From the NCBI GenBank assembly GCA_016784165.1, contig JADHVD010000003.1, forward strand, positions 6,867 to 70,866: a stretch of 64,000 nucleotides of DNA, given 5' to 3'. Positions within the stretch are counted from its first letter, which is position 1. Every line of letters starts with the position of its first letter. The notes below the pieces were generated by a model. The model did no database searches, had not been told where the DNA came from, and worked only from the letters and a program-made list of their open reading frames with translations. Position numbers and translations under genes: made by a program. The stretch comes from Candidatus Woesearchaeota archaeon. Its GTDB lineage: Archaea; Nanobdellota; Nanobdellia; Woesearchaeales; BS150m-G63. Shown here piece by piece: positions 9,420-62,473 of the stretch.

Positions 9420-10638
9420 TTTTTATTCCACCAACTTTTTCATTAATATATTCACATTCCACAATCTTCTTAACAAGCTCAGTAGGTCGCTTAAACTTTC
9501 TTTTCAATTTAGTATAAATTTTACCCTCACGAACATAGGTGTTAGCATATTTTTTTTTAAAATTTTCAACACGACTCTCCTCACTCAAAGGAGGGCCACT
9601 CCACTCATATTCATCACTCAAAACTTCTTTCTTCAAAATATACCAAAATAAAGCTTTCTTACTTTTATCCCATTCCCATCCATCACCAATCAGAGTAAAT
9701 TCATGTTTTCTAAAAGCCACACCAATATGTTCAAAAACTTTCAGTAATTTAGCACCAACAACATCTTCTTTTCCATCTAAAGCAGTAACATCAAACAGCA
9801 CCAACACATTTCCCGCACTCATTTTCCTAAGCTCATCAACATCAATTTTCTTAATCTTAAAAAAATCAGCACTAGGGTTATCCAAAAAAGATTTAGCATT
9901 ATCAATAAATAATTTAAATTTATCTTTCCCAAGTGCCGCAGCTGCATTTCTTTCCGGCATTATTGGATCCACTACAATAAGGGGTGAAATCAATTTAGAT
10001 TTATTCATTTCTTTTAACGCATTTCCACCATAAATATTGTGATGGTCCACAATAACTTTGCCACTCCATCCAACAGCACTCTTCAAAAAATTCAAAAATC
10101 CGCCGTAATGAATCACCAAAATATCTAACACATGACCAGAAAAACCTTTAATATAACTCTCAGCACCATACACTCCAATTCCTTTGCAAAACTGTTTCGC
10201 CAACCTAATATCATCTCTCAACCCAACATCACTATTTTTAATCACCCAATCAACATGCATTGGACTCATATCTGTAACATTTTTAGCATCACCAACATCC
10301 TTAATATCTAAAACAGGAACAATCTCAAAACAAAACTTATCAACAATCTTAAAATAATCTCTGCTTCCATGCACTAATTCAGGTTTCAATGGCTCTAAAA
10401 TATCCATCAACAACACACTAATATCTTCATCAACATATTTCATGTTAAATTTCATAAAAATATCAACATCATGGTCTCCACGAAGAAAAGTTCCTTTAGC
10501 AATAGAACCGCAGGCAAAAACCTTTACATCTAAACTAGACTTTTTCACAAGCTTCTCAAGTTTATCTAAAAACCTATTAATTTCTCTATCCACACCATTG
10601 GGTTTAATCTTACCCAACACATTTTTCAATAATTTCAT
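9409..10638 (-). CDS. cca: Archaeal class I CCA-adding tRNA nucleotidyltransferase
   Basis: The nucleotidyltransferase motif GSIAKGTFLRGDHDVDIF is present. The 409-aa length and overall pattern match the archaeal CCA enzyme. Confidence 0.8.
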   Translation of the reverse strand: MKLLKNVLGKIKPNGVDREINRFLDKLEKLVKKSSLDVKVFACGSIAKGTFLRGDHDVDIFMKFNMKYVDEDISVLLMDILEPLKPELVHGSRDYFKIVDKFCFEIVPVLDIKDVGDAKNVTDMSPMHVDWVIKNSDVGLRDDIRLAKQFCKGIGVYGAESYIKGFSGHVLDILVIHYGGFLNFLKSAVGWSGKVIVDHHNIYGGNALKEMNKSKLISPLIVVDPIMPERNAAAALGKDKFKLFIDNAKSFLDNPSADFFKIKKIDVDELRKMSAGNVLVLFDVTALDGKEDVVGAKLLKVFEHIGVAFRKHEFTLIGDGWEWDKSKKALFWYILKKEVLSDEYEWSGPPLSEESRVENFKKKYANTYVREGKIYTKLKRKFKRPTELVKKIVECEYINEKVGGIKIKK

Positions 10639-13321: not shown

Positions 13322-13918
13322 ATGTTTTACAAATTAAAATTAAAAGACCATATAAGGGTACCACCTTCATTATTTGAGTTCCCTGTAGAAGAAGCAATAA
13401 TATCTGCAATTAAAAAAACCTATACGAATATGATTTCCAAAAATTTAGGAATTATCATAGATGTTGTAAAAATAGCAAAAATTAATGAAGGGATAATTAT
13501 TCCAGGAGATGGAGCATCTTATTATGATACTGAATTTGAGCTTTTAACTTTTAGACCAGAACTTCAAGAAGTAATCTTAGGCGGGATAAGAGACATAGCT
13601 GATTTTGGGGTATTTATAACCATGGGCCCTACAGATGGAATGATTCACGTATCACAAACAATGGATGATTATGTTTCATTTTCAAAAGATAAATCATTAT
13701 TAGGTAAAGAAAGCAAAAAATCTCTTAAAGTTGGAGATAAATGCAGGGCAAGAATCATTGCAGTAAGTTTTAAAGAAGCAACAAACCCAAAAATAGGCCT
13801 AACAATGAGACAAATAGGTCTTGGAAAAATTGATTGGATTAGAGAAGAAGCAGAAGAAAAAAACAAAAAATCAAAAGATAAACCAACTAAAGGTAAGGGA
13901 GATAAAACTAAAAAATGA
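13322..13918 (+). CDS. rpo7: DNA-directed RNA polymerase subunit E-prime (Rpo7) with a short Lys-rich tail
   Basis: The N-terminus FYKLKLKDHIRVPPSLF is followed by an S1-like domain (GDKCRARIIAVSF). Synteny with spt4, rps24e and rps27ae supports the call. Confidence 0.8.
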   Translation: MFYKLKLKDHIRVPPSLFEFPVEEAIISAIKKTYTNMISKNLGIIIDVVKIAKINEGIIIPGDGASYYDTEFELLTFRPELQEVILGGIRDIADFGVFITMGPTDGMIHVSQTMDDYVSFSKDKSLLGKESKKSLKVGDKCRARIIAVSFKEATNPKIGLTMRQIGLGKIDWIREEAEEKNKKSKDKPTKGKGDKTKK

Positions 13919-14097
13919 AAAAAGTATGCAAATCATGTAAATTATTTGTAGAAGGAAATGAATGTCCTCTTTGTAAAAGTAACCAATTAAGTACAAATTG
14001 GCAAGGGAGATTAATCATTCTTGATGCAAATAAATCTATGATCGCTCAAAACATGAAAATAAACATGAAAGGCGAATACGCAATAAAAGTAAGGTAA
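13915..14097 (+). CDS. spt4: Transcription elongation factor Spt4 (RpoE-double-prime)
   Basis: It has a 60-aa zinc ribbon, CKSCKLFVEGNECPLCKS. It overlaps rpo7 by 4 nt. Confidence 0.8.
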   Translation: MKKVCKSCKLFVEGNECPLCKSNQLSTNWQGRLIILDANKSMIAQNMKINMKGEYAIKVR

Positions 14098-15813: not shown

Positions 15814-15884
15814 TAACTCTCACCATTATTATTTAATAATAATTAAAGGTAATTTATACCTCACTATTTATAATGAGGTATTAT

Positions 15885-16196
15885 TTACCCAAATAAAGCT
15901 CCTAATCCTTCTGCTGCTTGTTCTTCATTCACTTCTTCTTTCTTTTCTTCAGCTTTAGGTGCTTCTTCACTTTTTGCTTCTCCGCTTGCTTCTGCTGCTG
16001 GAGCTGCTGCAACTGGAGCTACTACTGCTTCTTTCAATACCTTCTCGACATCTACGCCTTTCAGAGCATTGACAACAACAGTAACTTTTGCTTTGTCTGC
16101 TTTAACTCCTGCCGCATCCAACACTTTAGTAAGATTAGCTTCATTAATCTCACTTCCTGCTTTGTGCAAAAGCATTGCTGCATACATATATTCCAT
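15885..16196 (-). CDS. rpl12: Ribosomal stalk protein P1 (L12e)
   Basis: The N-terminus is MEYMYAAMLLHKAGSEINEANLTKVL. It has an Ala/Glu hinge and the conserved terminal EGLGALFG. A GGAGG-like Shine-Dalgarno lies upstream. Confidence 0.9.
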   Translation of the reverse strand: MEYMYAAMLLHKAGSEINEANLTKVLDAAGVKADKAKVTVVVNALKGVDVEKVLKEAVVAPVAAAPAAEASGEAKSEEAPKAEEKKEEVNEEQAAEGLGALFG

Positions 16197-16225
16197 GTTT
16201 CTTACCTCCGAACTTTAGTGAGGTT

Positions 16226-16272
16226 GTAAAAAACCTTGAAGACGAATTAAATGAGTCTCCTTGTTTTTTTAC
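16226..16272. repeat. Intergenic hairpin family, copy a (between P0 and P1)
   Basis: The sequence is GTAAAAAAC-CTTG-AAGAC-GAATTAAATGA-GTCTC-CTTG-TTTTTTTAC. It has an outer stem of 8-9 bp, an inner stem, and a CTTG/CTTG self-pairing box. Confidence 0.6.
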
Positions 16273-16309
16273 CCCTCATATATCTTTTTAATTAAATTAT
16301 GAACTTTAG

Positions 16310-17491
16310 TTATTCTTCTTTTTTGCTCTGTTCTACAGAGTCTTCTTCACTTGGCTTTTCTTCAGGTTTAGAATCATCAGCCGATTCCCCCTCAACTTTT
16401 TCAGGTTTGTTTTCAGTTTCAGGTTCTTCTTTAGGTGATTCTTCTTTCTTCTCTTCTTCTTCATTCACTTCTTCTTTCTTCTCTTCAGCTTTAGGTGTTT
16501 CTTCTTTACTTATTTCTTTATCTGCCTTAGACTCATCATTTTTTACATTATCTTCACTTTCAGCTACTTTCTCTTCTTGTTTCTCTTCAGCAGGTGTTTC
16601 TTCTTGTTTTGGAGAATCTTGGGGTGCTGGAGCATCTTCAGGAACTTTTCCTTTCAGTTTCATCGCACCATTTTCAGCTTTTTTCAGAATATCTTCACTA
16701 GTTTCATCAGTTAATATCTCTTGTTCTAAAGCCAAAGTACGTGCTTCACCATGAATCTTAGGTAACACAATAGCTATAACTTCTTCAATAGGATAACTTA
16801 ATTCAACAGCAAGCGTAAATGCTTCACTGTGAGCTGATTTCATATCATTGATATAAGCTTCTTCATCAATATCTAATATATCTTTAGTTAGGATGTCTCC
16901 ATTTTCATAAACAGCAACTAATTCAAGACCAATTTCAACAGGTTTTACTCCAAGTCGAGATAAGATTCCAGCAACATTTGCTTTTACTTCTTCACCTTCT
17001 TTAACAACAACTTTATTTTCAATTATGTTGATTTTATTATCTTCAACCTTTGTTTTTAACCCCATAGCACCCAATTCACCAATGATTGGTCCTGGTGCAA
17101 AAGGTGTTGGTCCAGCTTTAAGAGAAAGATCGCAAGGAGCTATTTGTCCAGCTTTTGCAGGAGCAAATGATTTATTTTTCTTTAAAGTTTTGAATAATTC
17201 AAAAGGATCTTGTTTAGTAAATAATAAAGCAGGCATACCTTTCAGGTGTTCTATTAATTTTATAACTCCCTTTTTATCTTCTTGTGTTTTTTCAAATGCT
17301 AACTTCATTAATCTTTTTTTAGTCATGGTTAGCACAACATTCTCTCTTAATTTTGCACTTATTTTTTGTAATTGGCTTGCAGGAAGATTCTCCATATTCA
17401 CAACACCAATTATAGGATTTTCCTTAATTAATTTAACAAGATTAGCTACAACTTTTTTCTTAGCTTCTGAAACATGGGCTTTTGGATTCAT
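16310..17491 (-). CDS. rplP0: Ribosomal stalk protein P0 (uL10) with a roughly 110-aa acidic low-complexity tail
   Basis: The N-terminus is MNPKAHVSEAKKKVVANLVKLIKENPIIGVVNMENLPASQLQ. It overlaps rpl1 by 4 nt in the L1-P0-P1 order. The tail ends in SVEQSKKEE and has no GLGALFG. Confidence 0.85.
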   Translation of the reverse strand: MNPKAHVSEAKKKVVANLVKLIKENPIIGVVNMENLPASQLQKISAKLRENVVLTMTKKRLMKLAFEKTQEDKKGVIKLIEHLKGMPALLFTKQDPFELFKTLKKNKSFAPAKAGQIAPCDLSLKAGPTPFAPGPIIGELGAMGLKTKVEDNKINIIENKVVVKEGEEVKANVAGILSRLGVKPVEIGLELVAVYENGDILTKDILDIDEEAYINDMKSAHSEAFTLAVELSYPIEEVIAIVLPKIHGEARTLALEQEILTDETSEDILKKAENGAMKLKGKVPEDAPAPQDSPKQEETPAEEKQEEKVAESEDNVKNDESKADKEISKEETPKAEEKKEEVNEEEEKKEESPKEEPETENKPEKVEGESADDSKPEEKPSEEDSVEQSKKEE

Positions 17492-25150: not shown

Positions 25151-25163
25151 TTTGTGCTTAAAA

Positions 25164-25193
25164 ATACGCGTATAATGTACCTTATACGCGTAT
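25164..25193. other. dif-like recombination site or operator: ATACGCGTATAA-TGTACC-TTATACGCGTAT
   Basis: It has perfect 12-bp inverted arms around a 6-bp spacer, 14 bp upstream of the xerA start codon. The inner ATAA-TGTA..-TTAT matches the E. coli dif core as I remember it. Confidence 0.55.
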
Positions 25194-25210
25194 CTATATA
25201 AATCTTCCCA

Positions 25211-25258
25211 AAGATTTATGCTTGAAGACGAATTTTTTAGTCTTTTTGTATAAATCTT
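25211..25258. repeat. Intergenic hairpin family, copy c (next to the dif-like site)
   Basis: The sequence is AAGATTTAT-G-CTTG-AAGAC-GAATTTTTTA-GTCTT-TTTG-T-ATAAATCTT, with a 9-bp perfect outer stem. Confidence 0.6.
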
Positions 25259-25686
25259 ACCCTTAAAACCTTATTTTTGTGCTGAAACCTTCTTACTTTA
25301 CCTTATTTACACAAAAACCCCAGCATTTTAGCAAAAAATAGCAGATTCAAAATATCTCAAAAACCAATAAAAATAGAAACACCAAAAAATCTTAATTTTC
25401 CAAAAAAATAAAAACTAATTTTCAGCAAAAAATAATTTCTACAAATCAAAAAAAACAAAAATCTTTTCACCTAATTATTTTCAATATTGTAATTAACTAA
25501 ACTAAAACATTTAAGAAAAGCTTAAAACATTTAAGCTCAATTTAATCAACTAAAACTTTTAAGCAAATCCTAAAAGTTATAATCACTACAAAAAACACAT
25601 CAAATTATATCTATTAGAAAACATATTTTAAAAAATAACCATTCTAACCTATAAATAATAAAATATATACTAAAGAATATATTAAT

Positions 25687-28879: not shown

Positions 28880-29556
28880 GATTTGTCACCATCACCTTTT
28901 TTAGATTCTTCTTCGCTTTCTTTTTTTGAAAGTGTTGAAGAATCTTTTTTAGATTCTTCTTCGCTTTCTTTTTCTGAAGATACTGAAGAATCTTTTTTAG
29001 ATTCTTCTTCGCTTTCTTTTTCTGAAGATACTGAAGAATCTTTTTTAGATTCTTCTTCGGATTTTTCTTCAGGTTTATTTTCAGACTTTTCTTTTTCAAC
29101 TGGTTCGTCTTTTTCTTTCTTAGAATCCTTTCCTACTTTCTCTTCAGCTTTTTCTTTAGAGTCTTCTCCTTCTTTAGGTGTTTCAGCTGTTACACCTAAT
29201 TTAACTTTACCATATTTTATAATTTTAAGATTAATTTGACTTATATTTCTACCAATTGTATGGCCTCTTACATTCTTCCTTTGTCTTTGTCCTTTTCTTT
29301 TTATTTTAGCACCTACTCCAGAAATAACTAATATTCTTTTTCTTTCAGTACCATTAACATCTTTCCTCATTGGAAATCCACAGCTATCACTACCACCAGT
29401 AATTTCAAACTCATAACCATTCAATCCAAAAGAGTCACCCTTAATTTTTTCTCCTAACTTTTTACCTAAGAAGACTTCTGCTTCAGCATCTTTTGCTTCA
29501 CGCTGATAACATTTGCCGGTCTTAGGGTCAGCTAAAACTAATTTATAATCTGTCAT
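28876..29556 (-). CDS. rps6e: Ribosomal protein S6e with a roughly 95-aa Ser/Lys/Glu-rich repetitive tail
   Basis: The core is MTDYKLVLADPKTGKCYQ...GGSDSCGFPMRKDV...RKNVRGHTIG. I chose the start at 29554-29556 because a GGAGG lies 8 nt upstream; the track ORF starts 15 nt earlier. Confidence 0.85.
   Translation of the reverse strand: MTDYKLVLADPKTGKCYQREAKDAEAEVFLGKKLGEKIKGDSFGLNGYEFEITGGSDSCGFPMRKDVNGTERKRILVISGVGAKIKRKGQRQRKNVRGHTIGRNISQINLKIIKYGKVKLGVTAETPKEGEDSKEKAEEKVGKDSKKEKDEPVEKEKSENKPEEKSEEESKKDSSVSSEKESEEESKKDSSVSSEKESEEESKKDSSTLSKKESEEESKKGDGDKS
28897..29059. repeat. Roughly 3.4 tandem copies of a 48-bp unit inside rps6e (encoding KDSSVSSEKESEEESK)
   Basis: Read directly: units at 28897-28944, 28945-28992 and 28993-29040, and a partial unit at 29041-29059. 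Confidence 0.9.
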
Positions 29557-29586
29557 TTTTACGGCCTCCAACTCGTTGGGGGATGC

Positions 29587-29616
29587 AAAACTTGAAGAGA
29601 TTTACTCTTCTTGTTT
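29587..29616. repeat. Intergenic hairpin family, copy d (short form, in the rps6e upstream region)
   Basis: The sequence is AAAA-CTTG-AAGAG-ATTTA-CTCTT-CTTG-TTT. The closing pair of the inner stem is swapped relative to copies a and c (C-G to G-C). Confidence 0.5.
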
Positions 29617-29707
29617 ACCGACCACCCGAGGACATCTTATGTGCCCTCAGCACAAGCTTATATTATTAGAAAACCAGCACATCATTTAAAAACGTTTCGG
29701 TAATTAT

Positions 29708-34205: not shown

Positions 34206-35317
34206 TTAAGATACTCCAAATAATCAGATTTAAAATGCTTTAATCCAGTGAGGATATAATTTCCAGCACTTTGTCCTAACCCACATAAACTTGTTTCTTG
34301 AACATGTTCTGCAAATTCTTTCAAGAGTTCCAAATCTTTTTTTGTTGCTTTTCCTTCTTTAACTTGTTTTATTCTTTCTAATAATCTTATAGTACCTTCC
34401 CTACAAGGAGTGCATTTTCCACAAGATTCGTAAGTGTAAAATTTAGCAATAGTGTAAGATACATCTACAATGTTATGGGTTTCATCTATGAAAATCATGC
34501 TAAAAGCACCATGTTGACAACCTTCTTTACAAATATTTTCATGAGTTATTTCCATATTTTTTTTAATCTTCATAAATCCACCAAAACAACCAAAAGATAC
34601 TGCCTTAATTTTATTTTTAGACCTAACTACATCCAAAATTTTAGACATCTTTACGCCAAGTGGAAATTCATAAACTCCAGGATTTTCAACATTCCCTGAT
34701 AAAGAAAATAATCTAAGAGAAGAATCCCAATCATCAAATAATATTGATTGCGAAACGCCAGTTAAAGTTTCAACATTGTTAACTATTGTAGGTTTACCCC
34801 ACAACCCTTCAACAGGGGGATAAGGGGGTTTATACATCGCATGACCTCTATTACCCATTATTGATTGAATTATTGAAGTTTCTTCACCGCAAATATAAGC
34901 ACCAGCACCCCTAATTATTTCAATAGTAACAGCTAATCCAGATTTTTTAATTATTTCCTTTATTTTAGTTTCTAACTCAATCCTTAAATGATCATATTCT
35001 CCTCGCAGATAAATAAAACACCTTTTAGCACCAATAGTATAAGCAGCTATCAGAATTCCTTCAATCATCGTTTCAGCATTCTTTTTAATAATTAGTTTGT
35101 CTTTGAAAGTTCCAGGTTCACCTTCATCTGCATTACAAATCACAAATTTTTCATCACTAGAAGTTTCAAGAGCAATTTTCCATTTTCTTCCAGTTGGAAA
35201 AGAAGCACCACCTCTACCTACAACACCCATTTTATCTAATCTTTTTAGCACTCCTTTAGGCCCGAGTTTTTTTGCTTTTTCCAAAGCTTTAAGACTTGTT
35301 TTTAATTCTATTTGCAT
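34202..35317 (-). CDS. hydB: NuoF-like flavoprotein subunit (HydB) of an electron-bifurcating-type hydrogenase
   Basis: The motifs are GRGGASFPTGRKWK, ICNADEGEPGTFKD, ESCGKCTPCREG and SLCGLGQSA. It overlaps hydA by 4 nt. Confidence 0.85.
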   Translation of the reverse strand: MQIELKTSLKALEKAKKLGPKGVLKRLDKMGVVGRGGASFPTGRKWKIALETSSDEKFVICNADEGEPGTFKDKLIIKKNAETMIEGILIAAYTIGAKRCFIYLRGEYDHLRIELETKIKEIIKKSGLAVTIEIIRGAGAYICGEETSIIQSIMGNRGHAMYKPPYPPVEGLWGKPTIVNNVETLTGVSQSILFDDWDSSLRLFSLSGNVENPGVYEFPLGVKMSKILDVVRSKNKIKAVSFGCFGGFMKIKKNMEITHENICKEGCQHGAFSMIFIDETHNIVDVSYTIAKFYTYESCGKCTPCREGTIRLLERIKQVKEGKATKKDLELLKEFAEHVQETSLCGLGQSAGNYILTGLKHFKSDYLEYLK

Positions 35318-35321
35318 TGTT

Positions 35322-35726
35322 TCAATATTTTTTTAAAATCTTTTTTATTTTTTCAATAGTGAGATTAGTATAGGGTTTCCCATCCATTAACATTGCTGGA
35401 GCTTCATCACAACAGCCAATACAAGAAGTTTTATACAAAGAAAATTTTTTATTTTTAGTAGTTTTTCCTACTTCAATTTTTAATTCTTTTTCCAGAAAAT
35501 CTTCTATTTTTTGGCCATTATTAAGCATACAACTTGGGCTTCCACAAATTTCAATAATATGCTCTCCCTGTTTTTCTATTTTAAACATAGCATAAAAAGT
35601 GGCAACACCATATAATTTAGCTAAAGGAACATTATATTTTACACTAATATTCTTCATAGCTTTTTCAGAAATATAACCATCATTATCTTGGACCTCTTTT
35701 AAAACATTAATTAATATTTTATCCAT
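35322..35726 (-). CDS. hydC: NuoE-like thioredoxin-fold [2Fe-2S] subunit (HydC)
   Basis: The Cys pattern is ICGSPSCMLNNG ... TSCIGCCDEAPAM. Confidence 0.8.
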   Translation of the reverse strand: MDKILINVLKEVQDNDGYISEKAMKNISVKYNVPLAKLYGVATFYAMFKIEKQGEHIIEICGSPSCMLNNGQKIEDFLEKELKIEVGKTTKNKKFSLYKTSCIGCCDEAPAMLMDGKPYTNLTIEKIKKILKKY

Positions 35727-47255: not shown

Positions 47256-48524
47256 TTATGAATTATAAATTCTTAATTGATTTCTTCCATTTGTTTTTGC
47301 TTTATATAGTGCTTCATCTGCTCTTTTTATGAAAATATCTGTTAGAAGATTCATTTTTAAGTCTTCATCATTTAATATATCTGTTAAATTTTTATTTATT
47401 TCTTTAGAATAAATTTCTGCTTGGTCTTTTATTGATTCTAATCCATATAAAATTTGCCCATTTTTTAATCCTGTAAATTTGGAATAAATTTCTAATAAAG
47501 GAATTATTTTTAATTTATTTTTAACATATTTATTTATTAATACTTGTCCTGATTTTCCTTTTAAAATTCTTATTTCTGGAACTTCAAAACTTGAAACAAC
47601 ACCTATGCTAGTGTTTATATTAACTTTTTCTTCTTTACCCGTATGTATATTTTTAAAATAAAAATTTGTTTTTGATAAGTTTATCCTATATTGATCTAAT
47701 TTATTAATTATTCCTTTATAAAATTTTGATGAATTGTCAAAGTTTGCAAAAGAAATAAGAAATTCTTCCCCTCCAAATCTACCATGCAAGTCCCGACTTC
47801 TAAAACTATTTTTACTTAATTCTGTTGTTTTTCTTAATACTTCATCTCCATTCAAGTGTCCATAATTGTCATTTATTCTTTTGAAGTGATCCAAATCATA
47901 CATTGTAAGAACTATTTCAGGAGTATTAGTTGCACGAAAATTTAATAAAGTTTCTAATTCATTTTTCAGTTTTTCTTTGAATGTTTTCTTCCTAAATAAT
48001 CCTGTTAATTCATCTATTCCTAAAAAATTATCATGATATTGGATTAATTTTCCAAAAGCAGGAATTATTTCTTCAATTTTTATTTTATCCACTTCAGTAA
48101 ATCCATTTTTTTTATTTAATAATTGTATCGCCCCAATTATATCTCCATTTGCTTTTATCGGGATTGTTAACATATTTTTTGTTTTATAACCAGTTTGGCT
48201 ATCAAATAATCCTAAATGATAGGGGTTTTTTTTAACTTCATTGCACAAATCAGTTTTTCCTTCTGTTATTACTTTTCCAACTATTCCTTGATTAATAGAT
48301 AATCTTTTTCCAACTAAACCCTCTTCCCCACCAATAACATCCTTAAAAATTAATTCATTACCTTCTTTTATAAATAAAGAAGCAGCATCTGCACCAGTCA
48401 TATCTTTACATTTTAAATTCATATATTTAATCAAATTCCTAATATCTGTATCAAGATAATCAAATAATTCCATTAATGTGGTTTTGGTATGATTTTCTAA
48501 ATTTAATTTATCCTCTATATTCAT
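47256..48524 (-). CDS. GAF-domain plus GGDEF-domain protein (predicted diguanylate cyclase) with a large insertion in the GGDEF domain
   Basis: The motifs are DELTGLFRKKTF, MYDLDHFKRINDNYGHLNGDEVL, the I-site RSRD, the active site RFGGEEF (47760-47774), TSIGVV and RADEALYKAKTNGRNQ. A TATA-like CTTTAAATAG lies about 26 nt upstream of the ATG. Confidence 0.85.
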   Translation of the reverse strand: MNIEDKLNLENHTKTTLMELFDYLDTDIRNLIKYMNLKCKDMTGADAASLFIKEGNELIFKDVIGGEEGLVGKRLSINQGIVGKVITEGKTDLCNEVKKNPYHLGLFDSQTGYKTKNMLTIPIKANGDIIGAIQLLNKKNGFTEVDKIKIEEIIPAFGKLIQYHDNFLGIDELTGLFRKKTFKEKLKNELETLLNFRATNTPEIVLTMYDLDHFKRINDNYGHLNGDEVLRKTTELSKNSFRSRDLHGRFGGEEFLISFANFDNSSKFYKGIINKLDQYRINLSKTNFYFKNIHTGKEEKVNINTSIGVVSSFEVPEIRILKGKSGQVLINKYVKNKLKIIPLLEIYSKFTGLKNGQILYGLESIKDQAEIYSKEINKNLTDILNDEDLKMNLLTDIFIKRADEALYKAKTNGRNQLRIYNS

Positions 48525-60458: not shown

Positions 60459-60474
60459 AAAATCAATAAAGGGC

Positions 60475-60517
60475 AATAAATCTTGAAGACGAATGAAATG
60501 AGTAACTTGTTTTATTT
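60475..60517. repeat. Intergenic hairpin family, copy b (dnaK leader)
   Basis: The sequence is AATAAA-T-CTTG-AAGAC-GAATGAAATGA-GTAA-CTTG-TTTTATTT, followed by GGAGG and the dnaK ATG. Confidence 0.55.
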
Positions 60518-60535
60518 CCCGGAGGAAAAAATAAA

Positions 60536-62473
60536 ATGACAAAAGAAAAAACACAAGAAAAAAAACAAACTACCAAAAAAGAGAGCGGAGTTAGCAAAGC
60601 TATAGGTATAGACCTTGGTACTACTTTTTCAGCAGCAGCAGTAATGGAGGCTGGAAAACCAATAATTATACCTAATGCAGAAGGAGATAGAACAACACCT
60701 AGCGTAGTTTTAATTAAAGATAATGAAAGAATTGTAGGTAGGTTAGCAAGAAATCAGGCTGTTTTGAATCCAGAACATACAGTTAGAAGTATAAAGAGAA
60801 AGATGGGTTCATCAGAAAATATAACTATTGAAGGAAAAGATTACTCACCTCAAGAAGTAAGTGCAATGGTTTTACAAAAATTAAAAACAGATGCAGAAGC
60901 TTATTTGGGAAGAAAAGTAACAGACGCAGTTATAACAGTACCAGCATACTTCAATGATTCTCAAAGACAAGCAACAAAAGATGCTGGAGAGATCGCAGGA
61001 TTAAAAGTATTAAGAATTGTAAACGAACCAACAGCAGCATCATTATCTTATGGTTTAGATAAAAGCCAAGAACACACAATTATGGTATTTGATTTTGGTG
61101 GAGGAACTTTCGACGTTTCAGTTTTAGAATTAGGCGACGGAGTTTTTGAAGTTAAATCCACCTCTGGAAATAATCATTTAGGTGGGGATGATATTGATGA
61201 TTTATTAATAGATTGGATGGCAGAAGAGTTTAAGAAAGAAAATAATGTCGATCTAAGGGAAGATAAAACCTCGCTCCAAAGATTAAGAGAAGCAGCAGAA
61301 AAAGCAAAAATTGAATTGAGCACATCACAAAAAGCAACAATCAATTTACCTTTTATAACTGCAACAGATGCAGGTCCAAAGCATCTTAATACAGAATTAA
61401 AAAGATCTAAATTTGAAGAGTTAATATCAGATATAATAGATAAATTAGAAGCACCAACAAAACAAGCAATGAAAGATGCTAAAGTTACATCTAAAGATAT
61501 TGATAAAGTAATTTTAGTGGGCGGTTCAACAAGAATTCCATCTGTACAAAAAATGGTTAAAGATATTACAAATAAAGAAGGGGATAAATCTGTTAATCCC
61601 GATGAAGTGGTTGCTCTTGGAGCAGCAATTCAAGCAGGAATTCTTGGCGGAGATATTAAAGATGTCTTATTGTTGGATGTAACCCCTTTAACTCTAGGTA
61701 TTGAAACTTTGGGAGGTGTAAGAACACCTTTAATCGAAAGGAATACTACAATACCAACAAAGAAATCCCAAGTGTTTTCTACAGCAGCAGACAATCAACC
61801 AGCAGTAACAATTAATGTATTGCAAGGTGAAAGGGCGATGGCTGCAGATAATAAAGCACTAGGAAGATTTGATTTAGTTGGAATACCTCCAGCACCAAGA
61901 GGGATACCTCAGATAGAGGTCACTTTTGATATCGATGCTAATGGGATAGTAAATGTTAGTGCAAAAGACCTTGGTACGGGAAAACAACAACAAATAACAG
62001 TTACAGGAAGCTCAAACTTAAGTGATGGCGACATAGAAAAAATGAAAAAATCTGCAGAAGAGCATTCAGAAGAAGACAAAAAGAAGAAAGAAGAAATAGA
62101 GACAATTAATCAAGCAGATACTTTAGTTTACAGCACTGAAAAACTTTTCAAAGAAATGAAAGGTAAAGCAGATGACAAAAAACTCGATGAAGTCAAAAAG
62201 ATGATTGACGAGCTGAAAAAATTACTTGAGCCAGAGAAAAAAGATATTGAAAAAATTAAGAAAAAACTTGAAGAAGTTAATGAAAAAGTACAAGCAATAT
62301 CTACAGAGATGTATCAGAAAGTTGCAGCAGAACAAGCAGCTAAAGAAGCAAAAGAAAAACAAAAAGACGAAAAAAAAGGAAACACTGATAAAGCAGAAAC
62401 AAAAAGCAAAGACGAAAAAGTAGTTGACGCAGAGTTCAAGGAAGAGAAAGATAAGAAGAAAAAGGACAAATAA
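60536..62473 (+). CDS. dnaK: Hsp70 chaperone DnaK
   Basis: The motifs are [26 protein letters not shown] and [14 protein letters not shown]. It has a Lys/Glu-rich tail. Confidence 0.95.

Follow-up and report, generated by a model that had tools for sequence, protein, structure and literature searches.

Four short intergenic hairpins in the genome of a Candidatus Woesearchaeota (DPANN) archaeon, which has a G + C content of ∼30%, are probably insertions of a very small, non-autonomous palindromic DNA element, with the conserved core of the hairpin being the element proper. The hairpins lie within a 64,000-nucleotide stretch of DNA that was analyzed as a whole and is referred to here as the window. 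The outer stem of each hairpin is created from the target sequence at insertion, the element has been active since the window and sister lineages split, and its landing sites are nearly all translation start regions. It has probably spread by snap-back (fold-back) DNA synthesis.

The four hairpins had been recognized in a preliminary description made from the sequence alone, and all of their sequences were found as written there. The conserved core that it proposed is borne out by a 22-mer (CTTGAAGACGAATNAAATGAGT) common to copies a and b, for which 0.01 occurrences are expected by chance in the window, and by a box-stem-loop-stem-box pattern that matches copies a, c, and d, again with 0.01 expected in the window. 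A 13-mer (CTTGAAGACGAAT) is identical in a, b, and c, each time on the + strand. A covariance model was built from seven distinct copies and used to search the window with filters off; the window copies scored 50–70 bits and the next best match only 17.6 bits, and the copy number in the 64 kb is therefore exactly four. The flanking genes also agree with the earlier account, the pairs being P1 and P0 (copy a), YkgJ-like and dnaK (copy b), XerA-like and PAC2 (copy c), and S6e and NUDIX-wHTH (copy d). The outer arms differ from copy to copy yet are complementary, and the compensatory swap reported for the inner stem of copy d (AAGAG/CTCTT) is genuine. Two details required revision. The arms had been drawn too short, and their ends, rich in G or in C, reproduce Shine-Dalgarno boxes. 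Copy b, which had been listed as a hairpin of the same family, does contain the core, but its inner stem has no 3' half, with GTAA where the family has GTCTT, and it folds differently. The parts of each copy are listed in Table 1.

Table 1. Components of the four hairpin copies in the window, and two window loci that are empty where a related genome is filled.
Feature	Position in window	Strand	Sequence and remarks
Copy a, arm X	16264–16277	−	gene strand GAGGGGTAAAAAAA; upstream pseudo-copy of P1 Shine-Dalgarno box + spacer
Copy a, conserved core	16235–16263	−	gene strand CAAG GAGAC TCATTTAATTC GTCTT CAAG
Copy a, arm X'	16220–16234	−	gene strand GTTTTTTACAACCTC; X inverted
Copy a, filler	16210–16219	−	ACTAAAGTTC; second exact copy at 16301–16310, right behind P0 stop codon
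Copy a, X2	16197–16209	−	working start region GGAGGTAAGAAAC; P1 ATG (16194–16196) directly after
Copy b, arm X	60471–60481	+	GGGCAATAAAT; dnaK Shine-Dalgarno box + spacer, decayed copy
Copy b, core (flipped)	60482–60509	+	CTTG AAGAC GAATGAAATGA GTAA CTTG; 3' half of inner stem degenerate
Copy b, arm X'	60510–60520	+	TTTTATTTCCC
Copy b, X2	60521–60535	+	working dnaK start region GGAGGAAAAAATAAA; ATG at 60536
Copy c, arm X	25249–25262	−	gene strand GGGTAAGATTTATA
Copy c, core	25221–25248	−	gene strand CAAA AAGAC TAAAAAATTC GTCTT CAAG
Copy c, arm X'	25211–25220	−	gene strand CATAAATCTT
Copy c, X2	25197–25209	−	gene strand GGGAAGATTTATA; second direct copy of target
Copy d, arm X	29614–29627	−	gene strand GGGTGGTCGGTAAA; former S6e start region
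Copy d, core	29591–29613	−	gene strand CAAG AAGAG TAAAT CTCTT CAAG
Copy d, arm X'	29578–29590	−	gene strand TTTTGCATCCCCC; inverted copy, imperfect
Copy d, filler + X2	29557–29577	−	filler AACGAGTT; working S6e start region GGAGGCCGTAAAA; ATG at 29554–29556
Empty site of insertion e	13905–13925	+	rpoE stop overlaps spt4 start (AAAAAATGAAAAAAG); filled in L004
Empty site of insertion f	35305–35330	−	nuoE-like and nuoF-like genes 4 nt apart (GAAACAATGCAAATAGAA); filled in L104

On the strand of the downstream gene, the layout is X, core, X', a filler of 0–16 nt, a second X (X2), and then the ATG. The core reads C-AA-[G/U]AAGAC, a loop of 3–13 nt, and GUCUU[C/A]-AA-G, and it folds into a stem of 6 bp with a conserved 2x2 A.A internal loop, closed by a C-G pair. 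The palindrome measures 21–34 bases, and its conservation is confined to the inner 21 nt. There is also an imperfect inverted repeat of 9 nt (CAAGAAGAC / GTCTTCAAG), within which the boxes run in direct rather than inverted orientation. Among the 13 copies now known, every one has the boxes CAAG/CAAT ... CAAG/AAAG (CTTG on the opposite strand) and the closing C-G pair, and the A.A/A.A internal loop is kept, as are the invariant boxes and inner stem, while the arms drift and the sequence of the loop is not conserved. Two subfamilies can be distinguished. In the CAAG...CAAG subfamily, the insertion point is 0–3 nt before the ATG, and in the CAAT...AAAG subfamily it is 3–5 nt after the ATG; the two are distinguished at the base of the inner stem by a compensatory G-C to U-A change.

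The outer part of the hairpin is of local origin. X is 11–29 nt of local sequence, mostly a Shine-Dalgarno box and spacer and sometimes the start codon too, and X' is an inverted copy of the 9–15 nt of X closest to the core; the extents measured are 11 to ∼29 nt for the direct repeat and ∼9–14 nt for the inverted arm. X resembles the real start region, as seen in L007 (GGGAGGTAAAAAAAC followed by AAG, compared with CGGAGGTAAAAAAC followed by ATG) and in copy d (arm GGGTGGTCGGTAAA, compared with the working start region GGAGGCCGTAAAA). The filler in copies a and f is a templated copy of the sequence just upstream. In copy c, X2 abuts a dif-like site and there is no start codon there. A search of the window for the generic layout of X, hairpin, X', and X with any other core gave a count that was not above that of shuffled controls; the three-arm layout thus belongs to this element.

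More copies were found in related genomes, to which the preliminary description had proposed to extend the search, and the total is 13 at 10 sites in two to three related lineages that share 82–85% nucleotide identity. The same copies are present in independent assemblies from different samples, and they are therefore not assembly artefacts. Most are lineage-specific, and the density is approximately one copy per 11–16 kb. In the sister lineage, extra copies are located before a DnaG-like gene, a gene for a 939-aa surface protein, and a 116-aa gene. In the window's own lineage, two tandem copies occur at one start codon just past the right end of the window; the loop in this pair is only 3 nt, the boxes are CAAT...AAAG, and the start region, including the ATG, is present three times. 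A start codon adjoins nine of the ten sites (p ∼7e-6 even with non-coding DNA only), and the core has the same orientation at nine of the ten, copy b being opposite. The genes downstream are heterogeneous and include those for P1, S6e, DnaK, Spt4, a NuoF-like protein, DnaG, a surface protein, and a dehydrogenase. The DnaG module aligns with the P1 module across ∼85 nt, filler included, and this alignment shows that whole modules can also be copied between near-identical start regions.

Wider searches gave little beyond these lineages. A scan of species-representative genomes, a set apparently without the window's own genome, returned 41 matches compared with ∼35 estimated by chance, and the three real ones were all in the sister lineage. 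A metagenome scan anchored on P0 returned only distant relatives (≤59% identity), and the element was absent from the 199 kb of relatives with this level of P0 identity. Two scans of viral collections produced coding or chance matches only. All 13 copies are solo.

Two observations on the genomes themselves were made during these comparisons. The GTDB record CAZVVW01 (L030, L032, L039) is titled ‘uncultured Methanosarcinales archaeon’ and belongs with L004 in the sister lineage; the P0-P1 and spt4 element copies in its L032, along with their flanks, are the same as in the Woesearchaeota contigs L004 and L005, and the title is probably a mislabel. The ribosomal proteins P0, S6e, and L1 have long K/E-rich C-terminal tails, and that of S6e contains 48-nt tandem repeats; these features were noted at window 28903–29054, L106 1699–1743, and L008 1675–1720. 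A 59-nt in-frame segment in the S6e tail of L106 is 91.5% identical to one in the L1 tail of L008, and it holds a core-like palindrome, CAAG[A/G]AGAC..GTCTTCAAG, that may be connected with how the element arose.

The clearest evidence for insertion comes from comparison of the same loci in related genomes, which provided five pairs of empty and filled sites: dnaK, S6e, xerA/dif, spt4, and nuoF. All five filled sites have two direct copies of the local sequence, and between these lie the core and a single inverted copy. For example, spt4 (copy e) is empty in the window, L008, and L009, where the rpoE stop codon overlaps or abuts the spt4 start (...AAAAAATGAAAAAAGTATGC), and it is filled in L004, which reads, in order, ...AAAAAATGAAAAA, CAAT AAGAC..GTCTT AAAG, CTTTTCATTT, CAAGGAACTT, and AAAATGAAAAA AGTATGC. 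At S6e (copy d), L104, L105, and L106 are empty, with CCTCGGGAGGTCGGAAC/T-ATG, and the window is filled. At xerA/dif (copy c), the empty site of L104 is TTTTAAGGGAAGATTTATATATTTACGCG, and the filled site of the window consists of GGGTAAGATTTATA, the core, CATAAATCTT, a single T, and GGGAAGATTTATATA. At dnaK (copy b), L107 and L109 read simply GGAGGAATAAATAAA-ATG where the window is filled. The insertions at spt4 and nuoF have split genes that elsewhere overlap or are 4 nt apart.

Each of the copies b, c, d, e, and f is missing at the same site in the sister lineage. Outgroups polarize b (L109), d (L106), and e (L008, L009) as insertions. For c and f, which have no outgroup, absence alone is not proof of insertion, because slippage between the two X copies could excise the element precisely. 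Copy a is the exception in its distribution, being common to the window, L007, and L004 and absent in L008; across these three lineages its core is invariant and its arms have one double (A-T to T-A) change.

One option raised in the preliminary description was a tiny palindromic element that inserts into the loops of existing hairpins, with CTTG as the duplicated target. Insertion is what the paired sites show, but the loops are not the target: in none of the five comparisons is there a pre-existing hairpin at the empty site, and the core imported at the junction of X and X' is not present in the empty sites of spt4, S6e, xerA/dif, and dnaK. The CTTG/CAAG boxes are part of the element, and the duplicated part is the flank of 11–29 nt.

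These comparisons also explain the covariation. Among the 13 copies, 87% of the cells in the outer arms pair, and 11 of 17 pairs have changed on both sides. Statistically the signal is strong, with none of 500 shuffles reaching the observed values and no slid control close to them. The outer stems are site-specific and yet complementary because X' is copied from X at insertion. As the empty and filled sites demonstrate, the arms are made complementary when the element arrives, and the covarying stems can no longer be read as a sign of a selected RNA helix. A conserved core with perfectly covarying stems, usually regarded as good evidence of a functional RNA, can arise purely from an insertion that copies its target in inverted form, which is a warning for the discovery of RNA motifs more generally; comparison of empty and filled sites in relatives is the control that separates a functional RNA from an insertion.

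An alternative in which the covariation would reflect selection is that the hairpins are cis-regulatory RNAs of 5' UTRs, each with a conserved core that binds a protein or ligand and a variable closing stem. Here, X' would serve as an anti-Shine-Dalgarno sequence that pairs either with the decoy X, leaving the start free, or with the true start, which would be hidden. Riboswitches and ribosomal protein leaders do resemble the hairpins in having a conserved core and a variable helix just upstream of the start, with alternative pairing that hides the signal. Such an RNA would fit the position of nine of the ten sites immediately before start codons in a single orientation, and the retention of copy a in three lineages with an invariant core; the stem of the L004 copy is held partly by G.U pairs on the sense strand. 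X' can pair with X2 in every copy (−3 to −11 kcal/mol), and for copies h and i this pairing is predicted as the fold of minimum energy. However, the pairing of X' with the start region follows automatically from triplication of the target, and the relation between X, X', and X2 is in the same way the automatic result of duplication. Riboswitches and leaders have conserved positions, a fixed orientation, and coherent regulons, whereas the hairpins are insertion-polymorphic and invertible, and lie before unrelated genes that make up no coherent regulon, or, in one case, next to a dif site. Copy a alone is shared at the same position in relatives; for most copies the same sites are empty in the sister lineage and outgroups show recent insertion. 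Copy c is away from a start codon, copy b is inverted and broken, and the loop of 3–13 nt has no conserved sequence. G.U pairs number 9 on the sense and 6 on the antisense strand, which is no strand-specific signature, and folding is just as good for the antisense strand. A search against Rfam 15 at the gathering score found two tRNAs only, and at E≤1 these two and one weak, unrelated match overlapping a tRNA, with no family matched at any hairpin site. The structured RNA that had been among the first options is weakened accordingly, and we consider selected regulatory RNAs quite unlikely as an explanation for the family.

Another early option was that of terminators, in the sense of ordinary terminator or RNA-processing hairpins that had evolved where they now stand, behind the preceding gene. 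Each copy does lie past a stop codon and have a stem with a T-rich run behind it, X' being rich in T. The stems are A + T-rich, while an intrinsic terminator has a G + C-rich hairpin and a T-run at the 3' end of a transcription unit. Furthermore, one core sequence recurs at unrelated loci in the form of discrete insertions with target duplication, and several of the genes that were split overlap or are 4 nt apart in relatives, placing the hairpins inside operons and before the next start codon. Terminators are a misfit because the copies are directly upstream of start codons, and several are within operons of formerly overlapping genes. An origin as terminators in place is very improbable.

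The core might also be viewed as double-stranded DNA, with the palindrome GAAGAC-N-GTCTTC and the CAAG boxes forming a site for a dimeric transcription factor, given the palindromic half-sites near promoters and start sites. The spacing of the half-sites varies over 3–13 nt, which is incompatible with a fixed dimer site, and several copies are intra-operon. In addition, complementary site-specific arms and target duplications would have no role in factor binding, and this reading carries almost no weight with us.

Several other candidates for the core were considered and rejected. For a K-turn or K-loop, as in L7Ae sites, the tandem G.A of the loops in a and b is not conserved in c, d, e, f, or j, and there is no 3-nt bulge (as read by eye). 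The bulge-helix-bulge motif of splicing and processing is excluded by the symmetric 2x2 internal loop. A promoter with a TATA box in the loop does not accord with loops of 3–13 nt that have no conserved TATA; as a general function it also fails because S6e has its own TATA-like box upstream, and copy d is within its leader. A Type IIS restriction site (GAAGAC) is broken by the variants TAAGAC, GAAGAG, and TAAGAT. Mimicry of the GTPase-centre loop of 23S rRNA (UCAUUUAA), for autoregulation of P0/P1, is countered by the presence of the core before unrelated genes and by the dispensable loop.

With insertion of a small element as the preferred reading, the question becomes how it moves. A direct duplication of 11–29 nt is accompanied here by an inverted copy of the target and templated filler, and known transposases make either a fixed-length duplication or none, and no inverted copy. 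A duplication of variable length, an inverted flank, and templated filler are characteristic of fold-back or template-switch DNA synthesis (PMC11724301, PMC13334657), and not of the fixed staggered cut of a transposase. In the first step of such a process, a DNA 3' end, either nascent or left by a break, would pick up the core within an A/purine-rich start region, most simply through a template switch onto another copy at its X arm, this arm being a start-region look-alike. The core would then snap back on its own GAAGAC/GTCTTC stem, and the folded 3' end would prime copying of the strand just made, generating X'. Finally, synthesis would rejoin the original template upstream of the point of exit, giving the second X. 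The inversion of copy b might be a secondary flip between its X and X' arms.

Both fold-back priming and small inverted triplications (DUP/INV/DUP) with fold-back templated insertions are documented products of replication and repair in other organisms, such as yeast and human (PMC11724301, PMC13334657). These share with the present sites the direct-inverted-direct arrangement of a local segment, which was found in all five pairs of empty and filled sites, as well as variable lengths, junctions with short filler or microhomology, and a hairpin open to later, precise removal by slippage. The difference is that each such event is unique and the loop at its junction is local, whereas here the same imported core is found every time, at ten sites. 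If the snap-back route is correct, it links fold-back events of replication and repair to the birth of a repeat family.

The snap-back model leaves the conservation of the A.A/A.A loop and of the stem sequence unexplained. A protein-mediated route stays alive for this reason, as conservation of the stem sequence and the 2x2 mismatch would fit recognition by a protein. Under the corresponding alternative, a miniature transposable element of a classical kind (MITE, REP, or REPIN) would be moved in trans by a dedicated enzyme from elsewhere in the genome, for example an HUH/Y1 nuclease or another transposase that reads the mismatched hairpin as single-stranded DNA. Conservation of the stem, closing pair, and mismatch in both subfamilies around a free loop, together with the compensatory change between subfamilies, is a pattern typical of hairpins read by proteins, and the single polarity at nine of ten sites and the tight target preference point the same way. 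The form of the duplication, with its inverted copy and filler, speaks against it. No gene for a transposase, HUH protein, reverse transcriptase, or Cas1 was seen in the window or in the annotated loci of relatives, and no gene for RAYT (IS200/IS605-like Y1) in the same loci, where ∼10–20% of each genome is visible. Likewise, no master copy, mobilizing enzyme, or extrachromosomal carrier was found in the ∼200 kb of the clade examined. We regard enzyme-driven mobilization as unlikely, though well worth keeping in mind.

Comparison with specific families bears on the same choice. MITEs measure 100–400 bp, end in terminal inverted repeats that are fixed, and produce a target duplication of short, constant length (e.g. 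TA). Like the hairpins, MITEs such as Correia, ERIC, and RUP of bacteria are non-autonomous insertions, and their transcripts fold into mRNA hairpins that can change the expression of neighboring genes. Archaea also have MITEs (PMC11602168). The element described here differs in its size of 21–34 nt and in a duplication that varies over 11–29 nt and, rather than standing alone at a fixed length, is joined by an extra inverted copy of the target and filler. In bacteria, the REP and REPIN elements mobilized by RAYT are short, hairpin-forming, intergenic, and multi-copy (PMC3116915, PMC3733652). The hairpins resemble them in being 20–40 nt long, non-coding, and gained or lost between close relatives, and in having a hairpin that probably works as single-stranded DNA. 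REPs keep their whole palindrome and a 5' GTAG or CGTC tag, whereas here only the inner 21 nt is kept, the arms are site-specific copies of the target, and the tag is absent, its place being taken in all 13 copies by the boxes. REPs are mostly found after genes, often as inverted pairs, in contrast to the location at start codons and the lack of a paired REPIN arrangement here, and they have neither target duplication nor arms derived from the target. The small dispersed repeats (SDR) of the cyanobacterium Nostoc, reportedly ∼21–27 nt in length and judged mobile by same-site comparison (Elhai et al. 2008), are said to be similarly small and in hairpin-forming contexts, with unrelated sequences.

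The junction structure, with direct, inverted, and direct copies of the target at variable lengths round a shared core, is not shared by any of the families checked, and no description of an archaeal element of this kind was found in the searchable literature. In size, the element seems to rank with the smallest mobile repeats. It may even represent an undescribed kind of mobile DNA, namely a 21-nt self-priming snap-back hairpin without a classical transposase that takes its outer stem from the target, homes to start regions, and rewires DPANN operons, although we put this forward tentatively. In that case, operons would be rewired by the uncoupling of genes and by the introduction of 5' hairpins, decoy start signals, and short upstream reading frames.

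For the genes concerned, an insertion would place a stable 5' hairpin and a T-rich run just upstream of the regenerated start signal, and overlapping genes of an operon would be pulled apart. X' may instead engage the true start region by alternative pairing, and short reading frames could arise upstream. Individual copies may alter expression in these ways, and some may have been co-opted or be under selection, since copy a is kept in three lineages with an invariant core. Taken together, the copies behave as selfish or neutral DNA would. By landing almost only at start codons of reduced DPANN genomes, the element repeatedly remodels the translation starts of core genes (P1, S6e, Spt4, DnaK, DnaG) and their operon junctions, and this offers a natural experiment in the evolution of 5' leaders and gene coupling in archaea.

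Other features of the loci were observed alongside the element. The dif-like site (window 25164–25193) has 12-bp inverted arms and a 6-bp spacer (ATACGCGTATAA TGTACC TTATACGCGTAT), is located a few bases upstream of the xerA-like gene, and has the same sequence in the relative L104; copy c inserted at a distance of 3 nt from the edge of this site. PAC2 and xerA are separated by an unusually long spacer of 536 nt (window 25151–25686), most of which can be aligned with L104. It contains several small hairpins (25519–25537 and 25554–25578) and AGCACAAAA repeats, has no Rfam match, and could be a non-coding RNA or a region related to replication.

Several further hairpins were also seen. One in the 5' leader of S6e (GCTTGTGCTGAGG...CCTCGGGAGG, window ∼29628–29665, − strand), with a TATA-like TTTTATAAA ahead of it, is conserved between the window and the relatives L104 and L106 and is distinct from the inserted element; it may be a ribosomal protein leader. 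A hairpin directly after the P1 stop codon (ATACCTCA TTATAAATAG TGAGGTAT, window 15856–15881, − strand) has a TATA-like loop and is kept in L004 and L007, and not in L008 or L009. In L009, a layout of X, hairpin, X', and start region with an unrelated core, CAACATAGTAAACTATGTAG, occurs before P1 (9714–9770), once in 17 kb, and another hairpin, CTTGAAGAA...TTCTTCGGG, follows P1 (∼10095–10135); these may be further families from the same process. Elsewhere in the window, a GAF-GGDEF (diguanylate cyclase-type) protein is encoded on the − strand at 47256–48524, a type of domain that is uncommon among archaea.
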